This document shows positions 2,471 through 54,988 of a stretch of 64,000 nt of DNA, piece after piece; within the stretch, counting starts at the first letter, position 1, and every line of letters starts with the position of its first letter. This DNA comes from a virus (taxonomy: Duplodnaviria; Caudoviricetes): the IMG/VR virus record IMGVR_UViG_3300028392_002123. One strand, 5' to 3'. The translations under genes were made by a program, and so were the position numbers. A model generated the notes under the pieces. The model saw nothing but the letters and a program-made list of their open reading frames with translations, had not been told where the DNA came from and searched no databases.

Positions 2471-4576
2471 TTATGCCATTACTGGATAAACTTCATAGTT
2501 ACCATCGAAGTTATTTTCTCTTGCCCATAGTGCGGCCAATCTGTTGGCATCAGCCTGACTATTACCCACACCACGGAATCTATATACTTCGCGTCCTAGA
2601 CCATCAACCACTCGCCACTGTCCTGTAAAGTTACCGGCCGGGGATGCATTATTATTGGTACTAATAGTTTGATCATTATTACCAACTGTGCCTGCGGGTT
2701 GTGGATTACTTGCAGGAGCTCCGGTTGGTTCAACTGCCTGGCCGCCAACATGCCTAATACCAAACATAGCAGTGGCCTGTCCGTGTTGCAGGAGATGTGG
2801 ACCCATTCTAATATAATCCTGTAAATGTTCTAATGCTGTTGCATCGTCACTGACAAATCCAGTCGGCACACGTTCTACACTATTACCAGTTAATTTATTA
2901 TAAATTTCATAGCGTGGCGTATTATCTGCTTGATCGTAGGGTCTAACTGGTTTTGCAGTAATGTTTGTAGCATTAGCCCAGTCTGGATATTCTGCTCGTC
3001 CTTTTTCGATAGCTTCTTCTTTGCTGGTAGCAACAACTTCAACACTGGCACCATAGCCAGGACGTCCCACACTCCACCAATATTTTGTACCTGTTGGACC
3101 TTTCTTTAGTTTACGCTGTAATTGTGCTTGTTTGACAAAACTACGTAGTGCGGCCTGTGGCATTTCACCAGCACTATACTTGGCAAAGTATTGAATTGTA
3201 TCTGTTGAATCGTTGCTGGGAGTTAATAATTTATAAAGTTTTTTAGCATATTCTTCTTTGTATTTTGTTTCATCACAGGCGGCATCCAAGGCCACAACAA
3301 AACGCAACAAGGTATTGGTAATATTTCCTTCGTCGGCAGCATACTCTCCCAGCCAATCTCCGCCAGGACTGCGGAATTCAATATATCCTGTTTTTGTGTT
3401 GATACTAGTATATTTGCTGGTAGCTCCACTGTGAATAACTTTGCCAGCCAAGGTCGCTAGACCCTGTTTCATTTTGTCCAGGATAATTGCTACATCATCA
3501 GGGCGTTGAACAATACGTTCTTTGACAATGTCCACAGCACTCTTACAGTATGTATTGCCCAGCCTGCCAAATTTTTCTAGAATGTATTTGTCACCCAACA
3601 ACAATGCTAGTTTCGTATAGTCTAGCTTTTCCATGCTAAAATCAGGAACACTGACGTTGATGTGTAGGCCAGTGCTGTCATTGGTATAACAACCTTTGTT
3701 ATTAGCCCAGTTAACAACTTTGTCCAAGTCCGACAACATTTCATCTAGGGGTAAAGGCGGGCTAACAAATTCCAGGCCGCCGTCACTGCTGTCGTCTGGA
3801 TCTAAACTGCTGTCTGGTTCTACTACATAGTGTCCTGCTTCTCTGCGGCCGCCGTGATATCTATCGCTGGCATTTACTGGACGTCCTATCTCTCGACTAA
3901 ATTCATCTGCTACATCATCAACACTGATACCAGATTCTTGACTATGATAATGCGGCCAATTAATATCATAGTTACTTTCAACATCGGACATATTTTCTAT
4001 GCCTTCGTGTTCCAACCAATCACTTTCTAAGTCAGCATTACTATAAAAATCATCACGGAAATCATCTTCGGCATCTTCGTACCATGGACTAATTTGATCT
4101 TCTATTACTTTGTCCGTGGCCTTGGCAAAATCTTCTTTTGTTGGTTCGGGATACTCGCCGTCTTCATTGTGTTCAAGTTCTAATATACCGGCAATATCTT
4201 CGGCATTGGCGTTTTCTTTTAACCATCGATAAATGACTTCGCTCATGTCCGAATCCCAACGATCGTGTACCTGTTCATCCAGCCATCCATGATAGTCTTC
4301 CTGCATCTTATCGCGAAGACGTTCTACGTCTCTGCGACCATTATAATCACCATCATAGAAAAAATCGTAGGCATCCTGAATACTGCGAATACCTTCGTCG
4401 CTGTCATAGTCTGGCTCAGGATATTCGTCGTTGTCTCCTTGACTGGCACCAGGAACAATCATTTCAAATTCCATGCCAGCACGAGCATCAATGGTAGCGG
4501 CTATTGTTTTTAAATTAGATGGACTCATGTTGATCTCATCCAAGCGTTGTTCGTTGATAACGTCTAATAATTTCAT
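2471..4576 (-). CDS. Putative amidoligase (COOH-NH2 ligase-like) with C-terminal extra modules
   Basis: GMEFEM, DGGLEFVSPP, TNDSTGLHINVS, KYTSIN and IEFRSPGG motifs. Start moved to MKLLDVINE (4576), which gives an ATGA overlap with the upstream stop. Confidence 0.8.
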   Translation of the reverse strand: MKLLDVINEQRLDEINMSPSNLKTIAATIDARAGMEFEMIVPGASQGDNDEYPEPDYDSDEGIRSIQDAYDFFYDGDYNGRRDVERLRDKMQEDYHGWLDEQVHDRWDSDMSEVIYRWLKENANAEDIAGILELEHNEDGEYPEPTKEDFAKATDKVIEDQISPWYEDAEDDFRDDFYSNADLESDWLEHEGIENMSDVESNYDINWPHYHSQESGISVDDVADEFSREIGRPVNASDRYHGGRREAGHYVVEPDSSLDPDDSSDGGLEFVSPPLPLDEMLSDLDKVVNWANNKGCYTNDSTGLHINVSVPDFSMEKLDYTKLALLLGDKYILEKFGRLGNTYCKSAVDIVKERIVQRPDDVAIILDKMKQGLATLAGKVIHSGATSKYTSINTKTGYIEFRSPGGDWLGEYAADEGNITNTLLRFVVALDAACDETKYKEEYAKKLYKLLTPSNDSTDTIQYFAKYSAGEMPQAALRSFVKQAQLQRKLKKGPTGTKYWWSVGRPGYGASVEVVATSKEEAIEKGRAEYPDWANATNITAKPVRPYDQADNTPRYEIYNKLTGNSVERVPTGFVSDDATALEHLQDYIRMGPHLLQHGQATAMFGIRHVGGQAVEPTGAPASNPQPAGTVGNNDQTISTNNNASPAGNFTGQWRVVDGLGREVYRFRGVGNSQADANRLAALWARENNFDGNYEVYPVMA

Positions 4577-7500
4577 TGCGGTTTCTTCCAAGCTTTTGCA
4601 GGAACATTCAGTGTCTTTTCTAAATGTTTAAGCGAAGCATTAATTAATGTATCTGAACTATCGCGTCCCGGTTGCCAGTACCAACGACCACTCTGTGTTT
4701 GTCTTAGTCCCATGGCTTTTAAATCAATGTGACTAAAACTGCCACCGCCACGACCTACATCAAAGAAGTATAGTGTATCAGCAGGATTGCCAGCACTTTC
4801 ATTTTTAGGTTTCTTATGATGCTTTTTCATGTTGATGGCTATAGCGGCCTGCTGTGCGGCATTACCTTCTTCTATGCTTTCATTGGGCACACAGTTATTA
4901 ACTCCGACACCGCCTTTGATCTTAGTGCCTTCTTTGTGCTTGCCTTTCCAGCACTTGGGATCTAATCTTTGTCGAACACTTTCGGCCATGCTGACATTAT
5001 TTTTTAGGTCTTTTGTAATTAACTGTAGTAATTCTTTGGCAGCACCATCGCCCCACTCTAGGCTTTTGATAATAGCGTGTGCGCCTTCCTTGCCTATTTG
5101 TTGAATAATATGCTGTAGTAATTCTCGAGTAACATGTGGTACACCTTTGGCATCACCTTCTGCCTCCGCCACACCCTCGCCTTCGTCTAAGTCCCACACG
5201 GTCCTCAATCCAGATCCGCCGTGATCGCTGAGTAATTCATCAATCATTTCGCTGACATGACTGTCTAATTTATGTTGTGCCGCTAGTCCGGCACGCTCAC
5301 CTTTGGTTACATAGATGCTGGCAACTTTCTTTGCGTTAGCAAAATCTTCGGGTTCATAGCCCAACTCATCGTTTTCAGCTTCATACTCGGGTATGTATTT
5401 TAATATCATTCGACCAATGGTTGGACCAGCATCTGATTCTGCAGTTTTGCCTTGAGCAATATTAGTAATTTGATTTATATCGTCAATTTGATTTGTATTA
5501 CCATTTGCGCCCATGCCTTGCCATACATTGATTTGGTATGCTGGTAGGCCAGTGGCCTGAAGACCGCGATTCATATCGGAAAAATATTTGTTGATGGCTG
5601 ACACGGTTTTAACTATCATAGCAGCCAGTTGCTTTTGATTGTGAGTAGTAAATTCTTTATTGGTATCGAAATACACCTCTGTATAGCCTTGCCCTTGGCC
5701 AGGCTCAACCAAATCCCATCCGTATTTTTGACCAATGACTGTTAATTGTTGTTCAATTCGATCAGGAGTAAATTTTAGGTCTTTTATCAACTGACCTGGA
5801 TCATCGGTGGTAGCAGGCAAGGCTCGGCCATTTACTGTAGCGCCACGAATCCGTTTAGATGGTTGCTCACTGGCATAACTGACTGCAACATATCCACTAA
5901 CAGGATCAGGAGTGTTCTTTTGAATAGCACCCATCATTTTTTGGAATTTTGGATCATCGGTTGCGGCTTCCGCCACACCTTGCTGACCAATTTGTACTAA
6001 CCATTCTAATTCATCGTCAGCATCTTTGACATCAAAGAATTTAACATTAGGAATCTTCTTGGCAGCAAACCATTTGTTGGCTACTTTAACCATAAGGGCA
6101 CGATGTTGTGGATCACGAACATCCGGCTCGTAGCCCCCTGTTAAGTTTGCCCATAACGCACTTGGATTACCATTGCGGTCATAACCTAATAGTTCACGCC
6201 ATTGTTGTTGTAATTGTTGTGGTACATACTGATCTAACTCTGTGTCACTCATCCACTCTTGACCAATGTCAACACCTTCCGCCACATTTTTTTTACCATA
6301 CCGTTGTAGTAAATCTTTACCTGTACTTAATTCAAATGCATCTTTTACATAAGGTCCTAAACGTTCAATAGCACGTTGTTCTATCTTAGGTAAATTTATT
6401 TTAGCATCTTGTATGTTATCATATTCCCCGTATAACACTACTGCACCATCCCAAGCCCATACATAATATTTGCTTGGATCAACATTATACTTACCGCCAT
6501 TAATAGTCTCGATGCCTTCCGCCACACCTTGCTTATAACTTGGTTGTGTAAGTTTAACCGGCGGCGCTTGAACTGCGGCTACTAATAATTTATTTCCAGC
6601 GGCAATAGCATTTTTTAATGCCTCATCTCTACTTGTGGCCACTTGACCAGCATCTTTGAACATAGCAGGATTGCGAACATTTACTGTGGGATTGGGCAAT
6701 GGTTTGTTGTTTATAAAATATTCTTTATTGTTGGCATTTTGTAATATCCACTTGTTTACCTCATACCTATCTTTTAAGAATTGTAGTTTGCCCTCTCCGT
6801 CTTTGCCATCAGTGGGGTCGAGTCCTGACTGAGTCAATTGCTGTAAAAATTTTCCTTGATTTTGTGGATAAGCATCCATATGTTGCACTAACAACCAAGC
6901 CGCATAAGGTGCCGCAGGATATGACCCTTTACCGTCCGCACCTTTGTCAGATAGTATTGTGTTTATATTTTGTTGTATATATGGCCAAACTTTAGCTTGG
7001 AAACCGGCTCGACGAGTAGGATCTTTAAATTGCTGATCTTGATTCATCCAGGCATTAAGTTGTTGTCGAATTTGGTTTGTATTTTGTTCCAAGCCTTCCG
7101 CCACACCTTCTGTTAGATCTTCTGCAGACCATGACTGATAGCTACGGCCATGCTCATCACCACTACGTATCACAAACACGCCGCCGTTGTCGTAGCCGCC
7201 TTCGTCTTCGCCGATTTCCCAGCCAGTGCGAGCCAGTATTTCTTCTATTTTTAACTGTGTGGCTTCGTCACCGTTCCACCACATACGAGCATACTTGTGT
7301 AAGATGTCATCTTCACCGTCACCGCCGCCATTGCCGGGCGCAAATTCATTTAATGAACTTTCACTGACAGGTGCTAGATATTGATCAAATACTTGTTTAA
7401 TTCTTTTTGGATCTGCGGCCCGGGGATAAAGCTGTTTAATAATGCCTAGTCTGCCAGCATCATCTGCTTCGGCATACATTGCACGTACTTGACTGCCGCT

Positions 7501-7959
7501 GTATACTTCTTCACCATTGACATCAAACACATGTTTCTTAGTAACAAACACATAACCGTGCTTGCTCAATGGTTCACATTCTGCAACACTATGAAATGGT
7601 TGATAGTAACCAGGCGTGCCATCTTTTTTGGTATAGGGCATAGGGTCGCGTTCACTGCGAACTATTACTAGAATATCTCTTTCGGGATTGAATTGTTCTG
7701 TGATTTCTCGTGGATTAATTGGCTGACGTACCTGTACAAAAGGATCTACCACGCCTGCTTGCTGTGCTAAAAATTGTTTGGCTTCAAAGGGAATAGGACG
7801 AGTCTTTGTATCATTGCTGGCCGCTACAAAGAACTTGGCATGTGGGAACTCTTGTTTGGCTTGAATATAACTGCTCATGTGTCCTTGATGAAAGGGCTGG
7901 AAACCACCGCCATATACTACGATTACCTGTGGTTGATCTTTTAATTCTAATAAACGCAT
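4573..7959 (-). CDS. Mosaic polyprotein: N-terminal HIGH-motif cytidyltransferase-like domain plus at least 7 unrelated modules joined by VAE-type linkers
   Basis: GGGFQPFHQGH (HIGH motif) at the N-terminus. AAWLLVQHMD resembles DUF6624 (from memory). A CWKGK...NCVP module lies near the C-terminus. GVAEG/NVAEG/GVAEA linkers recur. Confidence 0.75.
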   Translation of the reverse strand: MRLLELKDQPQVIVVYGGGFQPFHQGHMSSYIQAKQEFPHAKFFVAASNDTKTRPIPFEAKQFLAQQAGVVDPFVQVRQPINPREITEQFNPERDILVIVRSERDPMPYTKKDGTPGYYQPFHSVAECEPLSKHGYVFVTKKHVFDVNGEEVYSGSQVRAMYAEADDAGRLGIIKQLYPRAADPKRIKQVFDQYLAPVSESSLNEFAPGNGGGDGEDDILHKYARMWWNGDEATQLKIEEILARTGWEIGEDEGGYDNGGVFVIRSGDEHGRSYQSWSAEDLTEGVAEGLEQNTNQIRQQLNAWMNQDQQFKDPTRRAGFQAKVWPYIQQNINTILSDKGADGKGSYPAAPYAAWLLVQHMDAYPQNQGKFLQQLTQSGLDPTDGKDGEGKLQFLKDRYEVNKWILQNANNKEYFINNKPLPNPTVNVRNPAMFKDAGQVATSRDEALKNAIAAGNKLLVAAVQAPPVKLTQPSYKQGVAEGIETINGGKYNVDPSKYYVWAWDGAVVLYGEYDNIQDAKINLPKIEQRAIERLGPYVKDAFELSTGKDLLQRYGKKNVAEGVDIGQEWMSDTELDQYVPQQLQQQWRELLGYDRNGNPSALWANLTGGYEPDVRDPQHRALMVKVANKWFAAKKIPNVKFFDVKDADDELEWLVQIGQQGVAEAATDDPKFQKMMGAIQKNTPDPVSGYVAVSYASEQPSKRIRGATVNGRALPATTDDPGQLIKDLKFTPDRIEQQLTVIGQKYGWDLVEPGQGQGYTEVYFDTNKEFTTHNQKQLAAMIVKTVSAINKYFSDMNRGLQATGLPAYQINVWQGMGANGNTNQIDDINQITNIAQGKTAESDAGPTIGRMILKYIPEYEAENDELGYEPEDFANAKKVASIYVTKGERAGLAAQHKLDSHVSEMIDELLSDHGGSGLRTVWDLDEGEGVAEAEGDAKGVPHVTRELLQHIIQQIGKEGAHAIIKSLEWGDGAAKELLQLITKDLKNNVSMAESVRQRLDPKCWKGKHKEGTKIKGGVGVNNCVPNESIEEGNAAQQAAIAINMKKHHKKPKNESAGNPADTLYFFDVGRGGGSFSHIDLKAMGLRQTQSGRWYWQPGRDSSDTLINASLKHLEKTLNVPAKAWKKPQ
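5165..7105 (-). repeat. Five dispersed in-frame copies of TGTGGCGGA (plus-strand TCCGCCACA), extended consensus (A)AGGTGTGGCGGA(A/G)G, encoding (G)VAE(G/A)
   Basis: Copies at 5165-5173, 5969-5977, 6278-6286, 6518-6526 and 7097-7105. Spacings of 804, 309, 240 and 579 nt are all multiples of 3. Confidence 0.9.
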
Positions 7960-9233
7960 TATCTTACCTTTGCAAAATTCTCACGGCTAAAGTCAAGTCT
8001 GTCAACTATCTTAACTGCTTCGGTGCCACCTTTGCCCAAGTGGTCAACAATGACAACACCTTCTTCGGGCTTGACATCATAGCTACCATCTGGACGAGCA
8101 ATGAATGTATTTACTTGTCTAATTTTAGCATAGTGTTGCTGTAGTTTGTTCTTGACATTCTGTATACCCAAGAACAAGAAGTAAACATTTTCAATGGCTT
8201 CTTCGTGACTGCGAATAAATGCCAGTGCGCTTTCAGCGGCTTCACGCTTGCGATCCTGTCCTGTCTGTGTTTTTAATTTAGCAATGTCTGCCTGTAATTT
8301 TTCATCAAAGCGATTGATAAAGTTGGCTACATAGCCGCCGGCATTGTCCATCTGTCCTGCACGTACCATTTTATTAACGTCGATTTTAATAGCGTCACGC
8401 ACAGCATGACCAGCAATGGTAGCATCCAACCATTTAAATGTGTCTGTGCCAATGCCCTTTAAGAAGTTACGTAGTTCAGTGATAGCATAGCGTAGATCAT
8501 AGGTTTCATCTCTGGTCAATGTGACACTACCGCTGACATCTTTAATGCCGGCATCTCTATACCATATAAAAGGACTGGTGCCCAAGCCGCTGACGTCGGC
8601 GCCAAAATGTGCTGTCATATCCTGTACAGTAGGACCGCCTGTATAAGTTGTATGGAACACAATGCCCACTTTACAACGACTCATTTTGTCTGCCAATGGA
8701 CCTGCAGGCACAGCATAGGTCAACAGGTTTGGAGTAAATGTAAAGTATGTTTGTCCATCAATGTCCTGGAAGCCGCTGGTACCATCACCTTCGGTCCATA
8801 ATAAATCACCTTGAAGAATTTTATCTCCATAGTTTAAGTCTTTGAGATAGTTAAAAGCCAATTTTAATTTGTCACGTAATGGACCATAGTTAACAACTTC
8901 TCCATTGCGTTCTTTGTTGGGCTTTAAACGATCAACGTCTGAGGGCTTGTATATTCTGCCATCTTTGGTACTGGCAAATATACCTTTGTCGCCCATGACA
9001 AAATAACCTGTTTCTGGATCTGTGCCCAAGAATAATGCAGGACTGCCATCCCATTTTTTAGTGGCAAAATAACGTTGCTCGGTTGTGCCAGCTAATAAGT
9101 TTGTTGCACCTTCGATGTAGTCAATGGCTTCAATGGCACCTTGGTGGCCACGATTCCATATTTCGTCGTCTAAGTGTTCTAAATGGGTGTTTTTCCCATC
9201 TACTGCTTCGGTGATAATTTGATTTATTTTCAT
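7959..9233 (-). CDS. DUF6267-like protein with KxDG nucleotidyltransferase (ligase-like) motif
   Basis: KNTHLEHLDD, TKKWDGSPA, LQGDLLW, FTPNLLTYAVP and EEGVV...KIVDRLDFS motifs recalled from a T4-like cyanophage family that usually sits next to a cytidyltransferase, as here. Confidence 0.7.
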   Translation of the reverse strand: MKINQIITEAVDGKNTHLEHLDDEIWNRGHQGAIEAIDYIEGATNLLAGTTEQRYFATKKWDGSPALFLGTDPETGYFVMGDKGIFASTKDGRIYKPSDVDRLKPNKERNGEVVNYGPLRDKLKLAFNYLKDLNYGDKILQGDLLWTEGDGTSGFQDIDGQTYFTFTPNLLTYAVPAGPLADKMSRCKVGIVFHTTYTGGPTVQDMTAHFGADVSGLGTSPFIWYRDAGIKDVSGSVTLTRDETYDLRYAITELRNFLKGIGTDTFKWLDATIAGHAVRDAIKIDVNKMVRAGQMDNAGGYVANFINRFDEKLQADIAKLKTQTGQDRKREAAESALAFIRSHEEAIENVYFLFLGIQNVKNKLQQHYAKIRQVNTFIARPDGSYDVKPEEGVVIVDHLGKGGTEAVKIVDRLDFSRENFAKVR

Positions 9234-17529: not shown

Positions 17530-18873
17530 TTATTTATTTTTACCGCGGCGCATGTTCATTTGCCAACGTGCCAGCTGTCCTTTACGACCCGATGCATGAC
17601 TGGCCTTTTCCAGTTCGGCCATGGTGGCATGTTTGGGTATGCCATGACGAACGCTGTCTCCGGGGCGACCCGGGCCTTTGCCATCCGCAAAGTTTTCCTC
17701 TACACCCGGTTTTTTAACAGGACTCCAGTGGAACACAGTCATGCCCATACTGGGATATTCTTCCGGTTGCCACTTTGCACCCAGTATGTTCTGTATCACA
17801 GGAACAAAATACCGACGATATAAGCTGGCACGGTTATCACCTTTGGCAGTAAATGATACGCCAGGTGGACGAGCTTTGGCCATGTATTCAGGCAACTGTC
17901 GTTTAACAATATCAAGAACTGTGCTCAATATTTTCACTGTTGATCGGCTGGCACTTGTGGCCTGGCTTGGTGTGTCGTAATTGCCATTCACAGCAAATGT
18001 GATGTGCAAGGTGTCATTGAATTCACTGCGATCAAAGAACACATCTACCCAGTGGCCATCCACAGTGGCATGAAACAGACTGCGCTTTCGCTTGCGATTG
18101 GGCTTGTATTCAGCAGGTGCATTGCCCAGCTCAGTGATGGGCTCAACAGCAATCCAAGCCATGATATCGGTCTTGTTCAACAACTCGGCCGCGGCCCATG
18201 CTCTATGATTACCGTCTAAGATATAATTATTAGAATCTAAGACAATAGGATGTTTATCTATATAATGTAAACTGTGTTCTCCGGCATGTTCTGGATCAAT
18301 ATACATAACACGATTATAAGGATCATCGGTTTCACTGCCTTGTTCTTCATCATTGTATTCTTGATCGGGTATATGTATATCGGCCAGTGGCACACGTTTT
18401 AATTCATATTCTGGATATTTCATTATCAAGTTTTTTAAAAACCCACCACCCTGTTGGTCCTTGGGATGTATTTTACTTACATAACTCCATACTTGTTCAG
18501 CTGAAGCAATCTTAGTAGATATAGATGTTTCCCACACGCGAACATCTTCGCCTTTGTGCTTGTTCCAGAATCCTGCGCCTGCATCAGTTTGATCCCAGCT
18601 ACGCTGTATTTTGTAACCTTGGCTTTTAACAAAGTCATACATTATTTTAGCAATTCCTTGATTACGGAATTTTTCTTTGACAAATAAATCTTGGGGATCT
18701 AATTCCCGACCGTCGCCGATGTTAAATGTAACATGCCCTAGTTCGTTGCCCCAAGTTGAATCAAGTGCATTTACAAACAGTTGGCCATTGTCCTTGACCA
18801 TTCTGAATTGCAGGCCTTCAAAATCTTGTAGTTTACCCTGCTCACGTTCAACTATAAATTCATGTGCTCTCAT
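17530..18873 (-). CDS. Mosaic protein: GNAT acetyltransferase, ParB/Srx-like domain, unknown module and short basic tail
   Basis: FRNQGIAKIMY..AGAGFW (GNAT) and IVLDSNNYILDGNHR (ParB-like) motifs. Linkers VWE, ITE and VEE. N-terminus MRAHEFIVE. Confidence 0.7.
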   Translation of the reverse strand: MRAHEFIVEREQGKLQDFEGLQFRMVKDNGQLFVNALDSTWGNELGHVTFNIGDGRELDPQDLFVKEKFRNQGIAKIMYDFVKSQGYKIQRSWDQTDAGAGFWNKHKGEDVRVWETSISTKIASAEQVWSYVSKIHPKDQQGGGFLKNLIMKYPEYELKRVPLADIHIPDQEYNDEEQGSETDDPYNRVMYIDPEHAGEHSLHYIDKHPIVLDSNNYILDGNHRAWAAAELLNKTDIMAWIAVEPITELGNAPAEYKPNRKRKRSLFHATVDGHWVDVFFDRSEFNDTLHITFAVNGNYDTPSQATSASRSTVKILSTVLDIVKRQLPEYMAKARPPGVSFTAKGDNRASLYRRYFVPVIQNILGAKWQPEEYPSMGMTVFHWSPVKKPGVEENFADGKGPGRPGDSVRHGIPKHATMAELEKASHASGRKGQLARWQMNMRRGKNK

Positions 18874-20798
18874 CTGCTGGCCACCTTAATAGGTTCTCCT
18901 GGCTTGACATGCATGGCGGCCTGCCAATCTCGTGCTTTTTGTTCACGATTTTTTTGTCCTTTTAAGCCAGGATTAATATTCTTTGTAACTTGTTTTGTAT
19001 TGTTAAAACTCTTAGTTCTAGGTCTAACAAACTGTATCCAATACCATATACTGCTCAGCGCGGCCGCTGTGGGTGTGGCCACTATTTCAGGTTTGGCAAC
19101 AAAATCCACAGGATGATTAATAAATTTAGAAATCCACTCTCCGGCTTTTTGATAATTATATTTTCCAGTTAACTGCAAATATCCTCGGCCATGATATTTT
19201 GCGCCATCGCCGGGTTTGTCGTTGCCCAATATTTTGGCCTTGGCTGGATTAAATCTTATATCATATTTCTTTGCAAATTGTTCAGGAGTGCCATATTCAT
19301 TCATGGTGTTAAAGTTATCACTTTCATGAGCACACTGAGCCATAAATGCCGCTAACTCTGCGGGATTTTTAATAAATTGTTTGGCCCATTTTAATAAAAA
19401 ATCTACCTTGGGATTATTAGCCACGGACTGTGGTTTAGTATCTGTTTTTGCCTGTGCGCCCAAGGCGCTTACTGTGGCGCCTCCGGCCATGCCTTTAAGG
19501 AATCCTCTGCGATCAATGTCTTCCCCTACATCTTGTTTTATTCTTACTAGGTCAAATCCAATATGGTCACCGGTATCATGTACATTTTTTAATTGATATC
19601 CCCAGGATGTAGCATAACGTTGAAGTAACTTTGAATATAAACTAATTCTACTGTCTTTTCCTTGTTCTTCGCCTTTGGCGCCGGTAAATGATATAAATCT
19701 CGGCTGTTCTTTTGTCGTTAGAAATTCTTGTATGGCACTTAATACTGTGGCAAAGATTCTCTGTGAATCACCGTCGCCAGTTGCATCTTGACTATTGTTT
19801 CTCCAAAATTCAACGGTGTACACATCATCATCTTCTTTATTGAACATGATACTTAAATTAGAACCGTCTGGTAATTTAGTATACGCATCGTGGTCACCAA
19901 ACTCCCCGTGTTCCCATTGAAGCGGATAGGGCTGATTAAAGGCTTCCTCCAGACTTTCAGGAGTCCAGGCCATGTTTTTACTGCCCTTGACTGTGGGTTT
20001 GAATCCCTGTCCCTTATAGAATTTTGTCAGTTTGGCCTGGCTTACCTGTCCTTTGTCCCAGGGATATAGTGTAAGACTTATATTATCTTCTCGGGCCAGC
20101 CGCTGTAGTTCCGCCATGGCGCGAGTACCCACTCCTTGACGCAGAGGATATGCTTGAAACCATTTGACTTCCACAGCATCTTTTTTGCTCATGCTGGGCA
20201 CTAGATCAAACATGGCAAACTGTTGTTGTTCACCTTCGCCCCATACCATAATATGATTATTTTGAAATGTATGCGGATACAAGTCATAGACCTTTTTAAT
20301 CCAGTCTTTGGCACGTTGAGGTACTGTTAGTTTTATAGTGTCTTCGGCTACATCATGATTCAGCGAATTTGCCAACTGAGATATAGGAACTCCCGCGGCC
20401 TTGTAACCACGTGCTATACGAGCAATATAAGTTTTACGAGGTCTAGTGCCTTCTAAGTGTTCTCTAGTCGCCGGAGTCATAGTGTACAATTCTGCTACAA
20501 CTTTATTGCCGTCAACGTATACTGGCACAGTTTTTCTATCATATAAATGAGGATAACCTTCTGTACGATCTAGTTCGGCCAACATATTTCTGTCCAAGGC
20601 CCATAGTACTCCTACAACTTCTTGACCTGCTTCGGGACGCACATTAGCATATTGAAACATTTCATATTCAAAGTTTTTAAGCACAGCGGTGCCTACAAAA
20701 TCAGCACCACGCATTATCTTAGGATCTGTTAGCATGCCATATGCAAAATAGTATATGGGTACTGCACCTGCTTCTATTAGAAAATCACTGGCTTTCAT
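18870..20798 (-). CDS. Mosaic protein: gamma-glutamylcyclotransferase-like, GNAT, unknown module, and Tat-signal GH19 muramidase/chitinase-like domain
   Basis: YFAYGML..LDRTEGYP (GGCT), PLRQGVGTRAM..KFYKGQGF (GNAT), AAFMAQCAHES..YHGRGYLQLTGKYNY (GH19). Linkers VAE, LEE and VGE. Start MKASDFLIE with ATGA overlap. Confidence 0.75.
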   Translation of the reverse strand: MKASDFLIEAGAVPIYYFAYGMLTDPKIMRGADFVGTAVLKNFEYEMFQYANVRPEAGQEVVGVLWALDRNMLAELDRTEGYPHLYDRKTVPVYVDGNKVVAELYTMTPATREHLEGTRPRKTYIARIARGYKAAGVPISQLANSLNHDVAEDTIKLTVPQRAKDWIKKVYDLYPHTFQNNHIMVWGEGEQQQFAMFDLVPSMSKKDAVEVKWFQAYPLRQGVGTRAMAELQRLAREDNISLTLYPWDKGQVSQAKLTKFYKGQGFKPTVKGSKNMAWTPESLEEAFNQPYPLQWEHGEFGDHDAYTKLPDGSNLSIMFNKEDDDVYTVEFWRNNSQDATGDGDSQRIFATVLSAIQEFLTTKEQPRFISFTGAKGEEQGKDSRISLYSKLLQRYATSWGYQLKNVHDTGDHIGFDLVRIKQDVGEDIDRRGFLKGMAGGATVSALGAQAKTDTKPQSVANNPKVDFLLKWAKQFIKNPAELAAFMAQCAHESDNFNTMNEYGTPEQFAKKYDIRFNPAKAKILGNDKPGDGAKYHGRGYLQLTGKYNYQKAGEWISKFINHPVDFVAKPEIVATPTAAALSSIWYWIQFVRPRTKSFNNTKQVTKNINPGLKGQKNREQKARDWQAAMHVKPGEPIKVASR

Positions 20799-21250
20799 TT
20801 TCCATAGCCCCAATGCTTTTTGCCATTTTTACGGTGCTTTTTAGATTTCTTAATTATTTGATCTGGTTCACCAAAGTCTACTTTAATCACACGACCAGTC
20901 TTGGGATTCTTTGTATAGACTTTAATTTTTTCTTTTTTCTCAATGACAGTTTCTTCACCCATGTGTTTAAAATACTGTACTTCTCGTTCACGCTTTTCAG
21001 CACCAGCATGAGTAGGATACTTACCCAAATTTTTACCAGTTTTTTTGCTTTTTAATTCCCAGCCACCTTTGACTTTGACAATATGTTCTAGCAGAGTCAT
21101 GTCATTTCCCGGAGATTCGACTATGTATGTTGCTATATGAGTTGTTTTATTGATGCCAACAATAACTGTTTCGACAATAGTGCCGTTTATGTTAAATTCT
21201 AAAATATCGCCAATTTCTGGCTGGCCAGTATCAACTTCGTTTAATCGCAT
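20795..21250 (-). CDS. Small basic mosaic protein, possible head-internal protein
   Basis: Starts MRLNE at 21250, downstream of the terminator/TAAATA element. Lys-rich modules follow LLE and GEE. Confidence 0.55.
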   Translation of the reverse strand: MRLNEVDTGQPEIGDILEFNINGTIVETVIVGINKTTHIATYIVESPGNDMTLLEHIVKVKGGWELKSKKTGKNLGKYPTHAGAEKREREVQYFKHMGEETVIEKKEKIKVYTKNPKTGRVIKVDFGEPDQIIKKSKKHRKNGKKHWGYGK

Positions 21251-21253
21251 AAT

Positions 21254-21287
21254 AAAAAAACCCTTGCTAGTATTATTTAGCAAGGGT
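21254..21287 (-). terminator. Rho-independent terminator with a TAAATA box embedded
   Basis: Perfect 10-bp stem ACCCTTGCTA/TAGCAAGGGT with 8-nt loop, followed by a T-run on the minus strand. TAAATA at 21279-21274. Confidence 0.75.
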
Positions 21288-33442: not shown

Positions 33443-34183
33443 TTATAATTCTGATACTAAAACTGCTTCTTCTACATGGGATACATACTCGTTTAGCCGT
33501 AATTTTGCCATCATCAAATCTATATCTTCATTGAAGTACACAGCTAGAGTTGTATTAGAAGTGCGCCAACTTGGCTTTTTATTCAATGTGTTTAGATTCA
33601 TGGCAAAGCACAATTCTAAGCCCACATTAGTTTTAGCCCTGTGCTCGTCGGGATACGTATCTTCCAGCCAAACTCTAAAATTGTACAGTTCTTCTTTTCT
33701 AAATTTAGCAGTATTTTTAATATACAGTTTGTATCTATACTGCTTATTAAACAGGCTTTTTCGAACACGGATTTTGTTGTCAATTTCCATGTACTCTGCA
33801 TGTTTGGGATTTAAAGGTCTGTATAACATTATAATATTAGAAACGATGCGATCCCTCAGCATCAATTCTAAGATTAGATTATCATTGAAGTACAAATTTA
33901 CAGTACAGCCTTCTTGCCTTATGCGATAGTCTAGCTTAGATTCTTGATATTCGTCGAGGATATTTCTAATAATACTAGTAATTTCAACATTGACATTATA
34001 ATAGTTAGAACGCCTTGCCCGCCAATTGTAATGACCGTTATTAATAAACGAAGTGCTGGCCTTTTCTTTGACTGCTTCAAACTGTAGCTTATGAGTATAC
34101 TTTTTATAAAAACTCTTTTGAGGAGTTCTTATTACAATATGGTTGGGTATTACCACTAACTCATTGGAATTCATAGTCTTCAC
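33443..34183 (-). CDS. Hypothetical protein
   Basis: 246-aa ORF overlapping the clpA stop. Confidence 0.55.
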   Translation of the reverse strand: MKTMNSNELVVIPNHIVIRTPQKSFYKKYTHKLQFEAVKEKASTSFINNGHYNWRARRSNYYNVNVEITSIIRNILDEYQESKLDYRIRQEGCTVNLYFNDNLILELMLRDRIVSNIIMLYRPLNPKHAEYMEIDNKIRVRKSLFNKQYRYKLYIKNTAKFRKEELYNFRVWLEDTYPDEHRAKTNVGLELCFAMNLNTLNKKPSWRTSNTTLAVYFNEDIDLMMAKLRLNEYVSHVEEAVLVSEL

Positions 34184-36353
34184 CGTTATAAGTTATTTTA
34201 ATGTTAACCCCCGACAGATTTTCAAAGACAATTTTCTTACTCAATGGCTTTTTAATTTTTTCTGCAATAATACGCTTCATAGGTCTTGCACCCATTTTTT
34301 CATCAAAGCCGTCTTCGATAAGTTTCAGTATTGCACCATCATCTAGTTCCAATGAAATATTCTTGGGTTCTAACAATTCGTTAATTTCGTTGATAAATTT
34401 AATTACAATCGGACGAATCATCGGTTTATCAAGTTTATTAAATTCGATGATAGAATCTAATCGATTTCTAAATTCCGGAGTAAAGTGTTTATTAACTGCT
34501 TCGATGCTGGCATTGCTGTTAGTACTGTTATCAAAGCCAATTTTATTTCTTTCACCTTCTCTTGCGCCCAAGTTAGAAGTTAGGATTAAAATAATGTTTC
34601 TGCAACTAACAGTTTTTCCACTGCTACTGGTCAGCATACCATTGTCCATAATGCCCAATAAGATATTAAGCACATCAGGGTGAGCTTTTTCAACCTCGTC
34701 TAAGAGCAATACAGCATTGGGTGTTTGTTCTAAGTCATTGATTAATTTGCCTGCGCCGCTGCCGCCTTCACCGTAGCCCACATAGCCAGGAGGTGCACCA
34801 ATCAAGCTGGCAACTTTATGACTTTCTATGTATTCACTCATGTCATAGCGTAATAGTTCCATGCCCAATACATTGGCCAGTTGTTGCGCTAGTTCAGTTT
34901 TACCAACACCTGTTGGACCAACAAACAAATAACTTCCCAAGGGTTTGGTTAGCTCCTTTAAACCTGCTTTACTGATATAAACAGCATCTAATAGTTTTTC
35001 CACGGCCTTGTCCTGCCCGAAAACTTTGGTCTTAATGTCGTGTTCATAGTTCACCGGCTTGTATTCGTTGAGCACTTCCATTTGTTCGATGGGTACCCTG
35101 GCTTGTTCGCTTACTTCTTTCTTGACCTGGTCAACAGTTAGGAATTTATCTAAGGCATCTATTTTTATCTTGGCCATGGCACTATCTAAAACATCCAGTG
35201 CTTTATCGGGCAAATATTTGTCGTGCATGTGTTTAACAGTTAAATCCACACAGGCATCGATGGCCAGGGTATCTACTTCAACTCCATGATAAAATTCATA
35301 TTGATGAATACTGCAATGTAGCATATTTTTACAGTCTTCAGGACTCATTTCATCTATGTCTAATTTAGTAAAACGACGAGCCAACGCACGATCCGGTTCA
35401 ATTGATTCCCTGTATTCTTCATAGGTAGTACTGCCAATGATTTGAATTTTTCCCTTGGTTAATGCTGGTTTGATCAAGTTTGCCATGTCTGTACTGCTTG
35501 ATCCTGCGGCACCTGCGCCAACAATGGTGTGTATTTCGTCAATGAATAAAATGACATTGTCTCTATTTTCTAGTATATCAAATACTTGTTTGACACGTTC
35601 TTCAAAATCTCCTCGATACTTAGTACCGGCCATTAATGCGCCCATGTCTAGATTATAGATAATATGTTCTTTAATTGTACCAGGAACATCATCTTCAACG
35701 ATACGTCTAGCCAAGCCTTCAACAATGGCAGTTTTACCTACCCCTGGATCTCCTACTAGGATTGCATTTTTCTTTTTACGTCTAGCTAGAATTTGTACAA
35801 GTTTTTCAACTTCCTCACTGCGGCCGATCAGCATGTCTATTTCTCCTGCTTCGGCATCTTTGTTTAAATTGATACAATATTCTTCTAGAACTTTTTCTTC
35901 TAATTTAGATTTTTTAGTTTCCACACGTTCCATTTTACCAATACTTTCCAGGAAAGTGTCTTTGGTAACGCCGTGTTCGTGCAGATAAAAATATGCATGA
36001 CTATGTTTTTCACTGAGAATACTTAACAGCATATCAGGCGGACTAATAGAAGCTCTTCCATTAAAAATAGCCTGGGTAAACGCACGATTGAATGAGCGTT
36101 CTAACGTCTGTGTTTTTCTGGGTTTAGTCAGTCCTGGGACAACTAGATCCTCAATGCCTTCTAAGAAATTTGTCAAGTCTTCTACTATTGGTTCTGGGGC
36201 AACGCTCATGACTGACAATGACTCTTGGATATCTTTGTGTTCTAATAGAACCAAAGTTAAATGTTCCAAAGTAACATATTCGTGTTCTTTGTTTAATGCC
36301 AAGCGAAATGCTTTTTCGACAATTTCGTTAATTTGTTGTTTATCTTCTTCCAT
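34161..36353 (-). CDS. clpA: Clp protease ATP-binding subunit, ClpA-like
   Basis: Clp N-domain (HEYVTLEHL), Walker A motifs GDPGVGKT and GPTGVGKT, RYDMSEY, LIGAPPGYVG, GARPMKR. Confidence 0.92.
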   Translation of the reverse strand: MEEDKQQINEIVEKAFRLALNKEHEYVTLEHLTLVLLEHKDIQESLSVMSVAPEPIVEDLTNFLEGIEDLVVPGLTKPRKTQTLERSFNRAFTQAIFNGRASISPPDMLLSILSEKHSHAYFYLHEHGVTKDTFLESIGKMERVETKKSKLEEKVLEEYCINLNKDAEAGEIDMLIGRSEEVEKLVQILARRKKKNAILVGDPGVGKTAIVEGLARRIVEDDVPGTIKEHIIYNLDMGALMAGTKYRGDFEERVKQVFDILENRDNVILFIDEIHTIVGAGAAGSSSTDMANLIKPALTKGKIQIIGSTTYEEYRESIEPDRALARRFTKLDIDEMSPEDCKNMLHCSIHQYEFYHGVEVDTLAIDACVDLTVKHMHDKYLPDKALDVLDSAMAKIKIDALDKFLTVDQVKKEVSEQARVPIEQMEVLNEYKPVNYEHDIKTKVFGQDKAVEKLLDAVYISKAGLKELTKPLGSYLFVGPTGVGKTELAQQLANVLGMELLRYDMSEYIESHKVASLIGAPPGYVGYGEGGSGAGKLINDLEQTPNAVLLLDEVEKAHPDVLNILLGIMDNGMLTSSSGKTVSCRNIILILTSNLGAREGERNKIGFDNSTNSNASIEAVNKHFTPEFRNRLDSIIEFNKLDKPMIRPIVIKFINEINELLEPKNISLELDDGAILKLIEDGFDEKMGARPMKRIIAEKIKKPLSKKIVFENLSGVNIKITYNGEDYEFQ

Positions 36354-37146: not shown

Positions 37147-37371
37147 TTATCCTTTGTATCTAAAAGTTATTCTGCCCTTGGTTAGATCATATGGGCTCAT
37201 TTCCACTTCCACTCTATCAAGATTTAATATATTGATATTGTGTTTTCTTATCTTACCGCTGATCACTGCGGTTATTACTACACCTGCATCTTTTAGTTTA
37301 ACCCTAAATGTTGCGTTGGGCAAACATTCAATTACTTGACCTTCCAGTTTAATTAATTCTTCTTTGCTCAT
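37147..37371 (-). CDS. infA: Translation initiation factor IF-1
   Basis: [53 protein letters not shown]. Confidence 0.93.
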
Positions 37372-37889
37372 CAGTAATTTAATAAAAATTTGAACCTAGA
37401 TTTAATCGACTCTTCTACTGCCTTTTGTTCTAGTTCTTCTGGCGTTTGGCCGTAAGTTGTGGGGTCAACATTAATGTGCGCGGCAAATGTTTCTTCATCG
37501 AAAGGTAAAGCATTCTGCAAGTCACTTGTGATAAATTTCCAATTTTTGATGGCACTTAATCTTTTGCTGTCATTCAAAATATCTTGTATGCTGGTAAATG
37601 CATTTGGATCTCTTTTTAGTTCGACATAAATTAAGTATCTGCCTTTGTCGTCGGTGGCAGGACTGACTTCAACATCTTCAAATTCTGCCACACCATGTTC
37701 GATGAATAGTGCAAGATCATTGGCAGGTTTTTGATCCTTAACCGGTATGGCTAAAACAATATAATCTCGATCTTCACCTAGTTTTGTTTTATGCATGTCA
37801 ATCATGACTTCGTCATAGACTAACCATTGTAGATCACCTTCGTGAAGGCTTTCATTAAGTTTGTTGTTCTTTGTTCTCGTCATTGGCAT
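37371..37889 (-). CDS. Hypothetical phage protein
   Basis: ORF track. The start may be slightly downstream. Confidence 0.55.
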
Positions 37890-52936: not shown

Positions 52937-54988
52937 TTACTTGCTAGTAGCACGGTAAACTCCGTCCCAATCTTTTGGTAAATCAACTGACTTCATTTCT
53001 TTGCAACGCTCTATCCAATTTTCATAATAATGGTTCATTTGTCCGTCAAATTCTTCCATTAGGTTGTTGCAAAGTTCGATAGCCGCATCGAATCGTTGTG
53101 TTCGATACTCAGACAACATTGCATTGTGAGTTTCTCTGGCTATTAGATAACCTGGCATCGCGCCGGCATCTGTTATCAACACGGTGTGTATATTAACTCC
53201 TTCTTTCTTGCCTTTAACGGCAATACAATCTAATTCTAAAGTAAAGAATTCATCCTTTACATATTCAGCAGTTTTCGTACCAAGTACGATTCGTACACCG
53301 TACGGTTTACTCTGGCCCTCCAGTCTGGAAGCCAAATTAACACCGTCACCGAGGCAAGTATAGTCAAAACGCTGATCACTTCCCATATTACCCACCACAA
53401 CAGTATCACTATTAATTCCAAGACCCATACCAAAAGCTGGTATGCCTTCTGCTGTAACTTCTCGATTAAATTCATCCAAACTCTCCAACATCTGCAGGCC
53501 TGTGCGTACTGCATCTTTAGCATGGTTGCCATTGTCTAATGGTGCATTCCAAAATGCCATTTGTGCATCGCCTATATATTTGTCTAATGTACCTTTATTT
53601 TCTAAAATCTTTTTTGTCATAGCAGTCATATAACGATTCATAATTTTAGTAAGTCCTTGTACATCCTTGCCATAGTGTTCACTAATTGTGGTAAAGCCAC
53701 GAACATCAGTGAACATAATACTTAGCTCTCTACTCTCGCCGCCCAGCTTTAATAACTCAGGCTGACGTTGTAGTTGTGCTACAAGATCTGGACTTAGGTA
53801 AGTTCCAAACTGTTTTTTAATCTGTTGTTTTTGTAAAAACTCACTTACAAACTTGACCCCGTAAGCATGTAAAGCAACCAAAATAATGCCGCTGACCAAC
53901 AAAGTGGAATCAAGAAGATAAAGATAATTTGAATAAGCAAACTTACTGCCGACAATAGAAAGAGCAACAATAGCAACAGTACTAGCAAGTCCAAGATAAG
54001 TCCACCTTGTTAAAAATAATAAAATAATACCCGCTATTAATATAGCAATTATTTCTGCGCCATCTGCCCAGTCGGGTCTTTGTATTATAACACCGTTGGC
54101 CAAAGTTGCTATAACCGCGGCCTGCACATGATGCGGAAATACCGCACCTATGCTCGTTGGCAAAGGATTACTAATGCCTGCGGCTGTTGGTCCTACTACA
54201 ACAATGGCACCACCAAAGTCTTTGGGCAAATCAGTCAATGACACAGATTTACTTTGCTGACTCCAATCAATCCATACGCGGCCTAAATTGTCTGTGGCTA
54301 TAGGACCAAACTTTGGAATACGCATTTTTTCAACACCACCTTCAAATAGCTTGACTTGAAAAGTAGAATCCCCAGCGGCAACACGCAACGTCTCTAGGCT
54401 TAATCCTGGGTATAACTTTTCGTTGACAGCAACCACCAGGGGTACACGACGATTAACACCATCTACTTCCGGTAATGTGTTTACTATGCCCACACCTGCG
54501 GCATTATTTTCTAATTGCGGTATGTTGGCAATCAATCCAGGATATGTGACTATTTGATCCAACCATTCGGGATTTAATACAGCACTACCTGGCACACGTG
54601 GATTATTTTTATTTTTAGAATTAGGTATACTGACTAAGACAACAGGATAGTTTTTAAGTATGGCGCCAAGATCCCTATCTCCACCAGTACGATCAGGCTC
54701 AGCCATAAGCACATTGAGAACAACAAGGCCAGCGTTGCGATGATACAGGTCTTCAATAATTTCAGCATAGTTAACCCTCGGTAACGGCCATTGGCCTAAT
54801 TTATCCAGTGCCGCTTCATCTATATTCACTGTATAGATATTGTTTTCTGTTTGTGTTTTTCCAGCGATCAATGTATCGAAATAACGCAGTCTTACACTTT
54901 CAACAAATGTAGGATCTGCGATTCTTATACCTAACACCAGCACAAGGGTTATTAGTGCTGTCCACGGACTTAGCAATATTTTTTTCAT
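52937..54988 (-). CDS. CHASE2-domain class III adenylate cyclase
   Basis: CHASE2 (IDEAALDKLGQWPLPR, DGVNRRVPL), 3 TM segments, then MFTDVRGFT, DKYIGDAQM, FDYT..GDGVNLASRLE (Lys/Asp adenine specificity). Confidence 0.92.
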   Translation of the reverse strand: MKKILLSPWTALITLVLVLGIRIADPTFVESVRLRYFDTLIAGKTQTENNIYTVNIDEAALDKLGQWPLPRVNYAEIIEDLYHRNAGLVVLNVLMAEPDRTGGDRDLGAILKNYPVVLVSIPNSKNKNNPRVPGSAVLNPEWLDQIVTYPGLIANIPQLENNAAGVGIVNTLPEVDGVNRRVPLVVAVNEKLYPGLSLETLRVAAGDSTFQVKLFEGGVEKMRIPKFGPIATDNLGRVWIDWSQQSKSVSLTDLPKDFGGAIVVVGPTAAGISNPLPTSIGAVFPHHVQAAVIATLANGVIIQRPDWADGAEIIAILIAGIILLFLTRWTYLGLASTVAIVALSIVGSKFAYSNYLYLLDSTLLVSGIILVALHAYGVKFVSEFLQKQQIKKQFGTYLSPDLVAQLQRQPELLKLGGESRELSIMFTDVRGFTTISEHYGKDVQGLTKIMNRYMTAMTKKILENKGTLDKYIGDAQMAFWNAPLDNGNHAKDAVRTGLQMLESLDEFNREVTAEGIPAFGMGLGINSDTVVVGNMGSDQRFDYTCLGDGVNLASRLEGQSKPYGVRIVLGTKTAEYVKDEFFTLELDCIAVKGKKEGVNIHTVLITDAGAMPGYLIARETHNAMLSEYRTQRFDAAIELCNNLMEEFDGQMNHYYENWIERCKEMKSVDLPKDWDGVYRATSK

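Follow-up and report, generated by a model that had tools for sequence, protein, structure and literature searches.

The window analysed here is a stretch of 64,000 nucleotides (nt) from the virus record IMGVR_UViG_3300028392_002123 (Caudoviricetes), and all coordinates refer to it. It features one long minus-strand open reading frame (ORF), 4573-7959, which encodes a protein of 1128 amino acids (aa), P0001. The word TCCGCCACA occurs exactly five times in the window, at 5165, 5969, 6278, 6518, and 7097, and all five copies fall inside this ORF. Only 0.28 copies are expected in the window, and five were reached in 0 of 100 shuffles. On the coding strand the five copies keep the reading frame, with the codons GGT/AAT GTG GCG GAA/GAG and G or A as the next residue, and they translate as (G/N)-V-A-E-(G/A). 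These linkers enclose segments of 193, 80, 103, and 268 codons, and the copies at 6514 and 7093 are identical over 17 nt (AAGGTGTGGCGGAAGGC, coding strand). A first-pass annotation of this DNA had reported a five-copy repeat with a minus-strand Val-Ala-Glu reading, the four module lengths, and a long match between these two copies; the count, positions, and frame of the repeat were reproduced, and the lengths and the 17-nt identity are correct.

All five copies use GTG GCG despite the codon background of the window, where GTG makes up 15.9% of Val codons and GCG 7.9% of Ala codons (59 long ORFs). The other 11 VAE tripeptides in the window are all spelt with different codons; the VAE at 20343-20351 is GTA GCC GAA, and the related VGE at 19521-19529 is GTA GGG GAA. 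Given the 26 in-frame V-A-[ED] sites in the window, the probability that at least five are spelt GTG GCG is 1.6e-5. When synonymous codons were shuffled across the whole window and the 8-mer was counted in every frame, the result was less extreme (mean of 1.4 copies, five reached in 23 of 2000 shuffles, P ~0.01) because Gly-run and Trp-Arg codons also create the word, and the in-frame codon test was taken as the relevant null in its place. The unusual GTG GCG spelling and the different spelling of the two distant linkers had both been pointed out before, and the original observation of the repeat is confirmed and is stronger than first stated. The sole other near-copy in the window, GGTGTGGCAGAAT, is located at 37682-37694 in the minus-strand ORF 37371-37889 and encodes H-G-V-A-E-F (residue 67 of the 172-aa product). 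This copy may have arisen by chance, or it may be a decayed junction within a protein of two modules.

The spelling of the linker extends to other phages. In 56 IMG/VR loci that were picked by protein similarity, with codons disregarded, the 9-mer TGTGGCGGA is present in up to 7 copies per locus, all of them on the coding strand. Almost all of its 48 distinct instances are (Q)GVAE(G/A), and the surrounding sequences differ from case to case. GVAE is spelt GGTGTGGCGGA, i.e. GGT GTG GCG GA(A/G), in 42 of 55 distinct cases in these loci. The linker consensus across phages is xxG CAA GGT GTG GCG GAA GGC, with per-codon counts of 58/59 for GGT, 61/81 for GTG, 57/81 for GCG, and 43/46 for CAA, and a final G is favoured in the -2 codon as well (14 of its 16 Lys codons are AAG). 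When IMG/VR was scanned openly for CAAGGTGTNGCNGAAGG, at least 120 loci and at least 145 distinct hits were obtained; among the 145 hits listed, the two N positions are G,G in 104, G,A in 8, and A,G in 8, and every other pair occurs 7 times or fewer. In these scans the exact DNA spelling of the linker is common to more than 100 other phage contigs. Spacings of neighbouring copies are multiples of 3 in 121 of 145 cases, the enclosed cassettes are 43-793 codons long (mostly 50-80), and every multi-copy contig has a GC content of 35-47%. Three ~350-kb IMG/VR genomes, G001, G002, and G003, encode orthologs of an ATPase in the window (45-49% identical) and have 7, 1, and 0 copies of the word, respectively. 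In G001 (354 kb) the seven copies of the 10-mer are on one strand, all inside 3.7 kb and nowhere else.

Conservation at silent sites was compared with that of the flanks. Third-position identity of the linker G, V, and A codons is 0.64-0.69 of pairs, and this value holds both beside homologous cassettes, which have a silent identity of 0.41-0.59 (near saturation), and beside unrelated flanks. Phages in which a shared enzyme has diverged to 27-33% identity also keep the word intact. Since the silent identity of the linker is the same whatever the relatedness of its flanks, the spelling is at equilibrium and is not merely inherited. GTG GCG use is far from background in the window as well as across phages.

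The segments between the linkers are found in many other arrangements. A profile-free search of 1.8 billion representative proteins identified 2841 relatives of P0001, which match one module at a time and have match ends at the linkers (query 283-483, 556-669, 657-936, and 11-200). The modules occur at any position in database proteins of 100-1400 aa that contain up to nine VAE linkers. The syntenic ortholog in locus L001, located between the DUF6267 and amidoligase genes, is only 287 aa long and consists of the transferase and one different tail. Additionally, 192 internal cassettes from 128 distinct linker-bearing ORFs form 160 families, and the multi-member families have almost as many different neighbours as members.

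The breakpoints of this mosaicism are located at the word. Cassette M3 (Table 1) is 98.8% identical over 259 nt to a locus of another phage, L009, in which both flanks are unrelated. The identity begins at AAGCAAGGTGTGGCGGAAGGC and ceases right after AATGTGGCGGAAG, i.e. inside the two linkers, with linker 2 as its left edge and linker 3 as its right edge, and apart from M3 the 12.6 kb of L009 contain no strong DNA match to the 64-kb window. Short matches between loci with an identity of 85% or more have 158 distinct ends, of which 38 are within 15 nt of the word (1.5 expected). Contigs, not reads, from four freshwater metagenome runs, each with its own study code, were aligned to the gene, and their loose ends accumulate at linker edges: at 7109 for linker 1 (with joints at 7082-7093), at 6513-6515 and 6533 for linker 2 in all four runs, at 6279 and 6286 for linker 3, and at 5987/5988 for linker 4 (with a joint at 5968). 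Contig depth differs up to ~100-fold between adjacent cassettes of the gene, therefore the cassettes also reside in other genomes. The summed depth over 6527-7096 in M2 is ~300 in runs X1-X3 versus 3.5-5 for neighbouring parts of the gene, so M2 must be carried by numerous other genomes that are more abundant in these lakes.

The repeat, its silent-site conservation, the mosaicism of the cassettes, and the breakpoints at the word are thus all observed features of these genes. The first-pass annotation had proposed that modules are added, lost, and shuffled in frame at the repeat, and had named invariant modules, breakpoints away from the repeat, and background codon usage as outcomes that speak against this. 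All three were checked and none occurred; the module changes among relatives (2841 relatives with modules at any position, the 287-aa ortholog, 160 families among 192 cassettes) and the breakpoints at the repeat support the proposal.

Table 1. Features of the putative polyprotein gene P0001 and positions of the leader-bearing ORFs in the window.
Feature	Coordinates	Strand	Description
Putative polyprotein gene P0001, 1128 aa	4573..7959	-	One open frame; MRLLE leader and nucleotidyltransferase, then unrelated cassettes
Module 1a, HxGH-type nucleotidyltransferase, MRLLE-led, aa 1-200	7360..7959	-	Pfam PF01467
Module 1b, aa 201-288, no function assigned	7096..7359	-	Found on its own elsewhere
Linker 1, GAA GGT GTG GCG GAA GGC = E-G-V-A-E-G, aa 284-289	7093..7110	-	
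Cassette M2, helical domain, aa 289-481	6517..7095	-	AlphaFold2
Linker 2, CAA GGT GTG GCG GAA GGC = Q-G-V-A-E-G, aa 477-482	6514..6531	-	
Cassette M3, aa 482-561	6277..6516	-	Exchanged recently with another phage (L009 identity)
Linker 3, AAA AAT GTG GCG GAA GGT = K-N-V-A-E-G, aa 557-562	6274..6291	-	
Cassette M4, aa 562-664	5968..6276	-	Relatives
Linker 4, CAA GGT GTG GCG GAA GCC = Q-G-V-A-E-A, aa 660-665	5965..5982	-	
Cassette M5, alpha/beta domain, aa 665-932	5164..5967	-	AlphaFold2
Linker 5, GAG GGT GTG GCG GAG GCA = E-G-V-A-E-A, aa 928-933	5161..5178	-	
C-terminal region, several mini-modules, aa 933-1128	4576..5163	-	Decayed junctions
Decayed junction MAE/S	4978-4992	-	C-terminal region
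Decayed junction IEE/G	4864-4878	-	C-terminal region
Leader-bearing ORFs	1-2460, 2471-4591, 7959-9233, 17530-18873, 18870-20813, 20795-21283		

P0001 has a CTP_transf_like match at aa 15-101 and no other match in Pfam, and the Pfam and PHROGs scans found no peptidase domain in it. Relatives of module 1a match aa 11-200 only. This module ends at a decayed junction, PVSE/S (7357-7371); at the aligned position L027 and L030 carry a GVAEG-SLNEF linker, and P0005 and P0017 carry a VAE linker (residue 202). Module 1b occurs separately in other proteins and also opens another ORF in L009. AlphaFold2 models were made separately for M2 (aa 276-492) and M5 (aa 652-945). Both models feature compact cores, with a mean predicted local distance difference test (pLDDT) score of 81 for M2 and 74 for M5, and the pLDDT is below 50 at both linker-bearing ends of each, therefore the linkers lie between independent domains. 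A fold search with the M2 model gave no match, and M5 gave weak Foldseek matches only, which are glutamine-synthetase-like or cyclase-like (E ~1e-3, low TM-scores). M4 is found at 76-96% identity in dozens of proteins, at many positions and with VAE on either side.

The C-terminal region features two mini-modules, 4877-4972 and 4798-4872, that occur in more than 40 phage loci at 80-89% DNA identity, and their order and neighbours vary. Contig loose ends at 4867 and 4964 coincide with the decayed junctions of this region. The mini-modules in 4795-4985 read RQRLDPKCW...NNCVPNE (~32 aa, two Cys) and AAQQAAIAINMKKHHKKPK (~25 aa, basic), and they are the most widespread cassettes seen. A full GVAE linker is often present in other loci at the position of the decayed IEE/G junction of the window. 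The last 103 residues (aa 1026-1128) exist elsewhere as a 106-aa protein, P0120, with 97% identity, which could represent the terminal module as an independent protein or result from truncation of a gene call.

The window carries tail-fibre genes, PhoH, and a gene family common to Pelagibacter phage HTVC008M and Methylophilales phage Melnitz, and it is part of a large phage genome. The runs that contain its DNA are freshwater metagenomes. No near-identical DNA was found among GenBank phages, and a protein search of GenBank phages gave a single weak nucleotidyltransferase hit. A 683-aa protein at 52937-54988 is 38-41% identical to an annotated adenylate/guanylate cyclase of Melnitz and HTVC008M, and this similarity is the best clue to the wider kinship of the phage. 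The ATPase mentioned above, at 34161-36353, is a 730-aa double-AAA+ protein that matches the PHROG 'ATP-dependent protease' (E 7e-239), and its ortholog in G001 (C1:140540-142702) is ~5 kb from linker-bearing genes.

P0001 is located in a multi-enzyme gene block that includes amidoligase (two genes), GGACT + GH19, GNAT, and DUF6267 genes. The DUF6267 gene, 7959-9233, overlaps the polyprotein gene by one base, which suggests translational coupling, and the pair is conserved in L001 and L020. At least six adjacent genes in the window, within 1-21283, start with leaders such as MKINQIITE, MKASDFLIE, MRAHEFIVE, and MKLLDVINE. These leaders resemble the T4 capsid targeting sequence MKTYQEFIAE (PMC8442874), which is removed by the head protease (PMC8442874; PMC9026906). 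Based on this resemblance, the block may encode a set of head-packaged, injected proteins. The leader of P0001 itself, MRLLE, is kept in 8 of the relatives examined, and the gp21-family peptidase Peptidase_S77 is encoded in all three ~350-kb relatives.

The junction peptide is (K/E)-Q-G-V-A-E-(G/A). The T4 prohead protease motif is L/I-x-E. Proteases of the gp21 family cut C-terminal to Glu after a short motif, which is A-x-E in SPN3US, with analogous Glu-ending motifs in phiKZ, 201phi2-1, and T4 (PMC5694885, PMC9026906). The sequence G-V-A-E followed by G/A fits these sites, and this likeness of motif suggests that the linker is a T4 gp21-type prohead protease site. The protease is known from the relatives only and none lies in the window; cleavage, packaging, and injection of the polyprotein are inferred.

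P0001 is probably a head-packaged, protease-cut effector polyprotein in which the linker doubles as a short-homology recombination joint. The gene would encode a cargo polyprotein of a giant freshwater T4-like phage, in which a short head-targeting leader and the nucleotidyltransferase are followed by a chain of independently folding, unrelated cassettes. The chain would probably be packaged in the head, processed into individual small proteins, and injected with the DNA. As a peptide, the junction lies in a segment of predicted disorder and matches the hydrophobic-x-Glu sites of gp21-type proteases. It is a DNA element as well, with a ~17-19-nt spelling common to the junctions of this gene and of hundreds of such genes in other phages. 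The word could then serve as a universal short-homology joint, at which the general recombination machinery of the phages would add or remove individual cassettes or transfer them from one co-infecting phage to another. A crossover between any two junctions would keep the frame and leave the domains intact, because the same frame and the same ~17-19 nt are present everywhere. The uniform spelling would arise because consensus-flanked cassettes keep moving and each exchange re-creates a consensus joint. T4-type phages recombine intensely. Their units are shuffled at short conserved motifs in the absence of a known dedicated recombinase (PMC2839356, PMC3157838). As no recombinase was found among the genes that recur beside multi-linker genes, the five junctions have no common fold, and the word has no dyad symmetry, general short-homology recombination is the most economical mechanism. 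We infer this mechanism and the force that maintains the spelling from the pattern of the sequences, and the word may promote recombination by itself. A Chi-like hotspot was considered and is not supported, since sub-words of the linker show only a general coding-strand G bias and the full word is absent outside these genes.

Several points weigh against this reading. No recombination event was directly seen in the contigs of the four runs. The contig joints at the linkers carry 20-25 nt on one side and represent foreign flanks and not deletions; cassette-skipping deletions were considered for them and rejected because these 20-25 nt are the linker itself. The breakpoints at the junctions could be explained by selection for functional chimeras alone. 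A homology of 11-19 nt is short for homologous recombination, and turnover or second-order selection would hold silent sites only weakly. The T4 capsid targeting sequence is longer than MRLLE, the leader of P0001, and no gp21 homolog is encoded within the 64-kb window. Additionally, the equilibrium at the silent sites of the linker would be explained more simply if the DNA or RNA itself were under a direct constraint.

One such constraint is a role of the spelling in the mRNA or in translation, for example as a ribosome pause for module folding; the linkers would then coincide with the breakpoints only because chimeras of any other kind are non-functional. GCG is used least often for Ala and GTG second least often for Val, and the AAG at position -2 is the minor Lys codon. 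The RNA also contains AGGUG, which is like a Shine-Dalgarno core, and when Gly follows it contains four GG runs (GG-UGU-GG-C-GG-AA-GG). The equilibrium of silent identity, independent of relatedness, agrees with such a role. However, the linker does not form a rare-codon cluster, since the commonest Gly codon, GGT (58/59), and CAA (43/46) are part of it. GGA would be a better Shine-Dalgarno match, yet it is outside the five commonest codons there, and Ala-ending linkers, which lack the fourth GG run, still keep GTG GCG. Variants are mostly single G-to-A steps from one template and not alternative slow codons. No common RNA structure is predicted for the five junctions, which have z-scores of +0.75 to -2.1 and different folds. 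A translational role is therefore considered unlikely. As candidate elements, an RNA structure, a G-quadruplex, and a Shine-Dalgarno-like pause were each found to be unsupported by the codon counts and the folds of the five junctions.

It is also conceivable, though unlikely, that the word is the core site of a cassette-mobilising system, in which a specific enzyme would insert single-domain cassettes at any other linker after their excision in the form of small circles, or after copying. If such a dedicated system exists, hundreds of injectable mini-proteins would form a library common to the whole freshwater phage community, and each could be plugged in frame into any carrier gene, which would amount to an integron for protein domains. 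Another proposal, that the word is the recognition site of a dedicated enzyme (a site-specific recombinase, a homing-type nuclease, or a nickase) that moves cassettes in an integron-like manner inside the frame, possibly via mini-circles, is regarded as improbable. It would account for the conservation of an exact ~17-19 nt spelling, which is not a general property like GC content, for the orientation of all copies as direct repeats on one strand, and for the clean movement of M3 between genomes as unlike as those of L009 and the window; cassettes of the promoter-early stem-loop (PeSL) type form known mini-circles (PMC2839356). However, neither the genes that recur beside 42 multi-linker loci (ferritin-like, DUF6267, PolB, and dCMP deaminase genes) nor the window ORFs scanned were found to include an integrase, a recombinase, or a homing nuclease. 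The word has no dyad symmetry by inspection, the five junctions share no fold, and no circle or deletion junctions were found in the assembled data, which consist of contigs only.

Shared descent alone, i.e. a recent duplication of the linker and hitch-hiking with the cassettes while the word itself has no role, is very improbable. The commonest variants are one transition off the consensus, as is expected for decay from a common ancestor, but the cassettes that flank the linkers are unrelated. The silent sites of homologous cassettes are at 0.41-0.59, and those of the linkers are at ~0.65 even with unrelated flanks, and the word stays intact where the shared enzyme is at 27-33% identity. An assembly artefact, in which assemblers joined different phages at a short repeat, is hardly credible even though the window and most relatives are metagenome assemblies, since the same cassettes are found with different flanks in many independent samples and studies, the junctions have a consistent reading frame that chimeric joins would not guarantee, and the repeat (at most 17-20 nt) is shorter than the usual assembly words.

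A literature search found no published description of this linker and nothing on the shuffling of phage polyproteins. Among the matches listed for the linker peptide, all were alpha-synuclein papers, in which the peptide is coincidental. Polyvalent cargo, protease sites, and motif-mediated shuffling, the parts of the preferred reading, are each familiar; what is undescribed, as far as found, is their combination in a single DNA-conserved junction common to many phages. If the reading of P0001 as a cargo polyprotein with a DNA joint is true, the linker would provide a prokaryotic-virus counterpart of exon shuffling, in which unrelated small proteins become interchangeable parts, and the same joint would probably also mark the cut points of the head protease. 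This would explain the very diverse injected proteins of giant phages and the transfer of single proteins, without their neighbours, from one phage to an unrelated one. The 17-mer offers a handle to catalogue hundreds of candidate host-takeover or counter-defence mini-proteins in metagenomes. Botstein-type 'linker' sequences as sites of modular exchange are reportedly an old idea, and the conserved joint renders it directly testable.

Integrons feature an IntI tyrosine recombinase beside the array and attC sites that fold into hairpins with imperfect inverted repeats. The genes described here are similar in that unrelated cassettes are arranged in arrays with a recurring site, a single orientation, and a very large shared pool. 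The two differ in that no IntI-type recombinase was found among the recurrent neighbours of the 42 multi-linker loci or among the scanned window ORFs, and in that the junction has no attC-like fold (five junctions, z +0.75 to -2.1). Additionally, the site is translated and the cassettes are in-frame protein segments, not genes. The comparison to an integron inside a protein, made in the first-pass annotation, thus stands as an analogy only, since neither an integrase nor an attC-like fold was found.

Polyvalent proteins of phages and conjugative elements combine 2-15 domains of disparate activity in one polypeptide (Iyer et al. 2017, PMC5512222). Delivery with the DNA and processing by a peptidase, usually a zincin-like MPTase, have been proposed for them (PMC5512222). 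P0001 is similar in that it combines a nucleotidyltransferase with six or more unrelated modules that have separate sets of relatives, M2 and M5 being modelled as separate domains, and in that it is located in a multi-enzyme gene cluster (amidoligase, GGACT + GH19, GNAT, nucleotidyltransferase) with extensive mosaicism. Unlike polyvalent proteins, P0001 has no peptidase domain, and the candidate protease is a separate gp21-type enzyme known from relatives. The words 'linker' and 'shuffl' do not occur in PMC5512222, and a universal junction that is conserved at the nucleotide level is outside that concept.

The internal proteins IPI-III and Alt of T4 (PMC9026906, PMC8442874, PMC5694885) are comparable in their leader, as MKTYQEFIAE is resembled by the leaders of the neighbouring genes here, and in the cut after hydrophobic-x-Glu that would be expected at the linkers. 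The cargo would likewise be ejected into the host, and the relatives encode a gp21-family protease. T4 cargo consists of single proteins that are cut once beside the leader (PMC8442874), whereas here one leader would carry at least six cassettes with internal sites that are conserved as DNA. By analogy, capsid-targeted T4 cargo appears to be the closest functional model.

Modules of T4-type phages are shuffled by PeSLs (Arbiol et al. 2010, PMC2839356; Comeau et al. 2014, PMC4122927), which their authors themselves liken to integrons and for which mini-circles are known (PMC2839356). In both systems a short repeated DNA motif borders variable units, exchange occurs at the motif, and no dedicated recombinase is known; in PeSLs, units are added, deleted, or replaced when copies of the motif recombine. 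However, a PeSL is an intergenic early promoter with a terminator hairpin that moves whole genes, whereas the linker is coding, in frame, translated as GVAE, and without a stem-loop, and it moves domains within a gene. The T-even adhesins recombine at the glycine-rich motifs of gp38 and at gp37 motifs (PMC3157838, citing Tetart et al. 1996, 1998). Here too conserved coding motifs separate variable segments, and exchanges in or near the motifs yield in-frame chimeras. The adhesin motifs differ in that they form the glycine-rich core of one domain with a fixed order, and the single-segment deletions tested gave no viable phage (PMC3157838). The units of P0001 and its relatives are autonomous, unrelated, and free in order and number, and their joint is a disordered linker. 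As analogies, PeSLs and the adhesin motifs appear to be the closest models for the recombination at the word.

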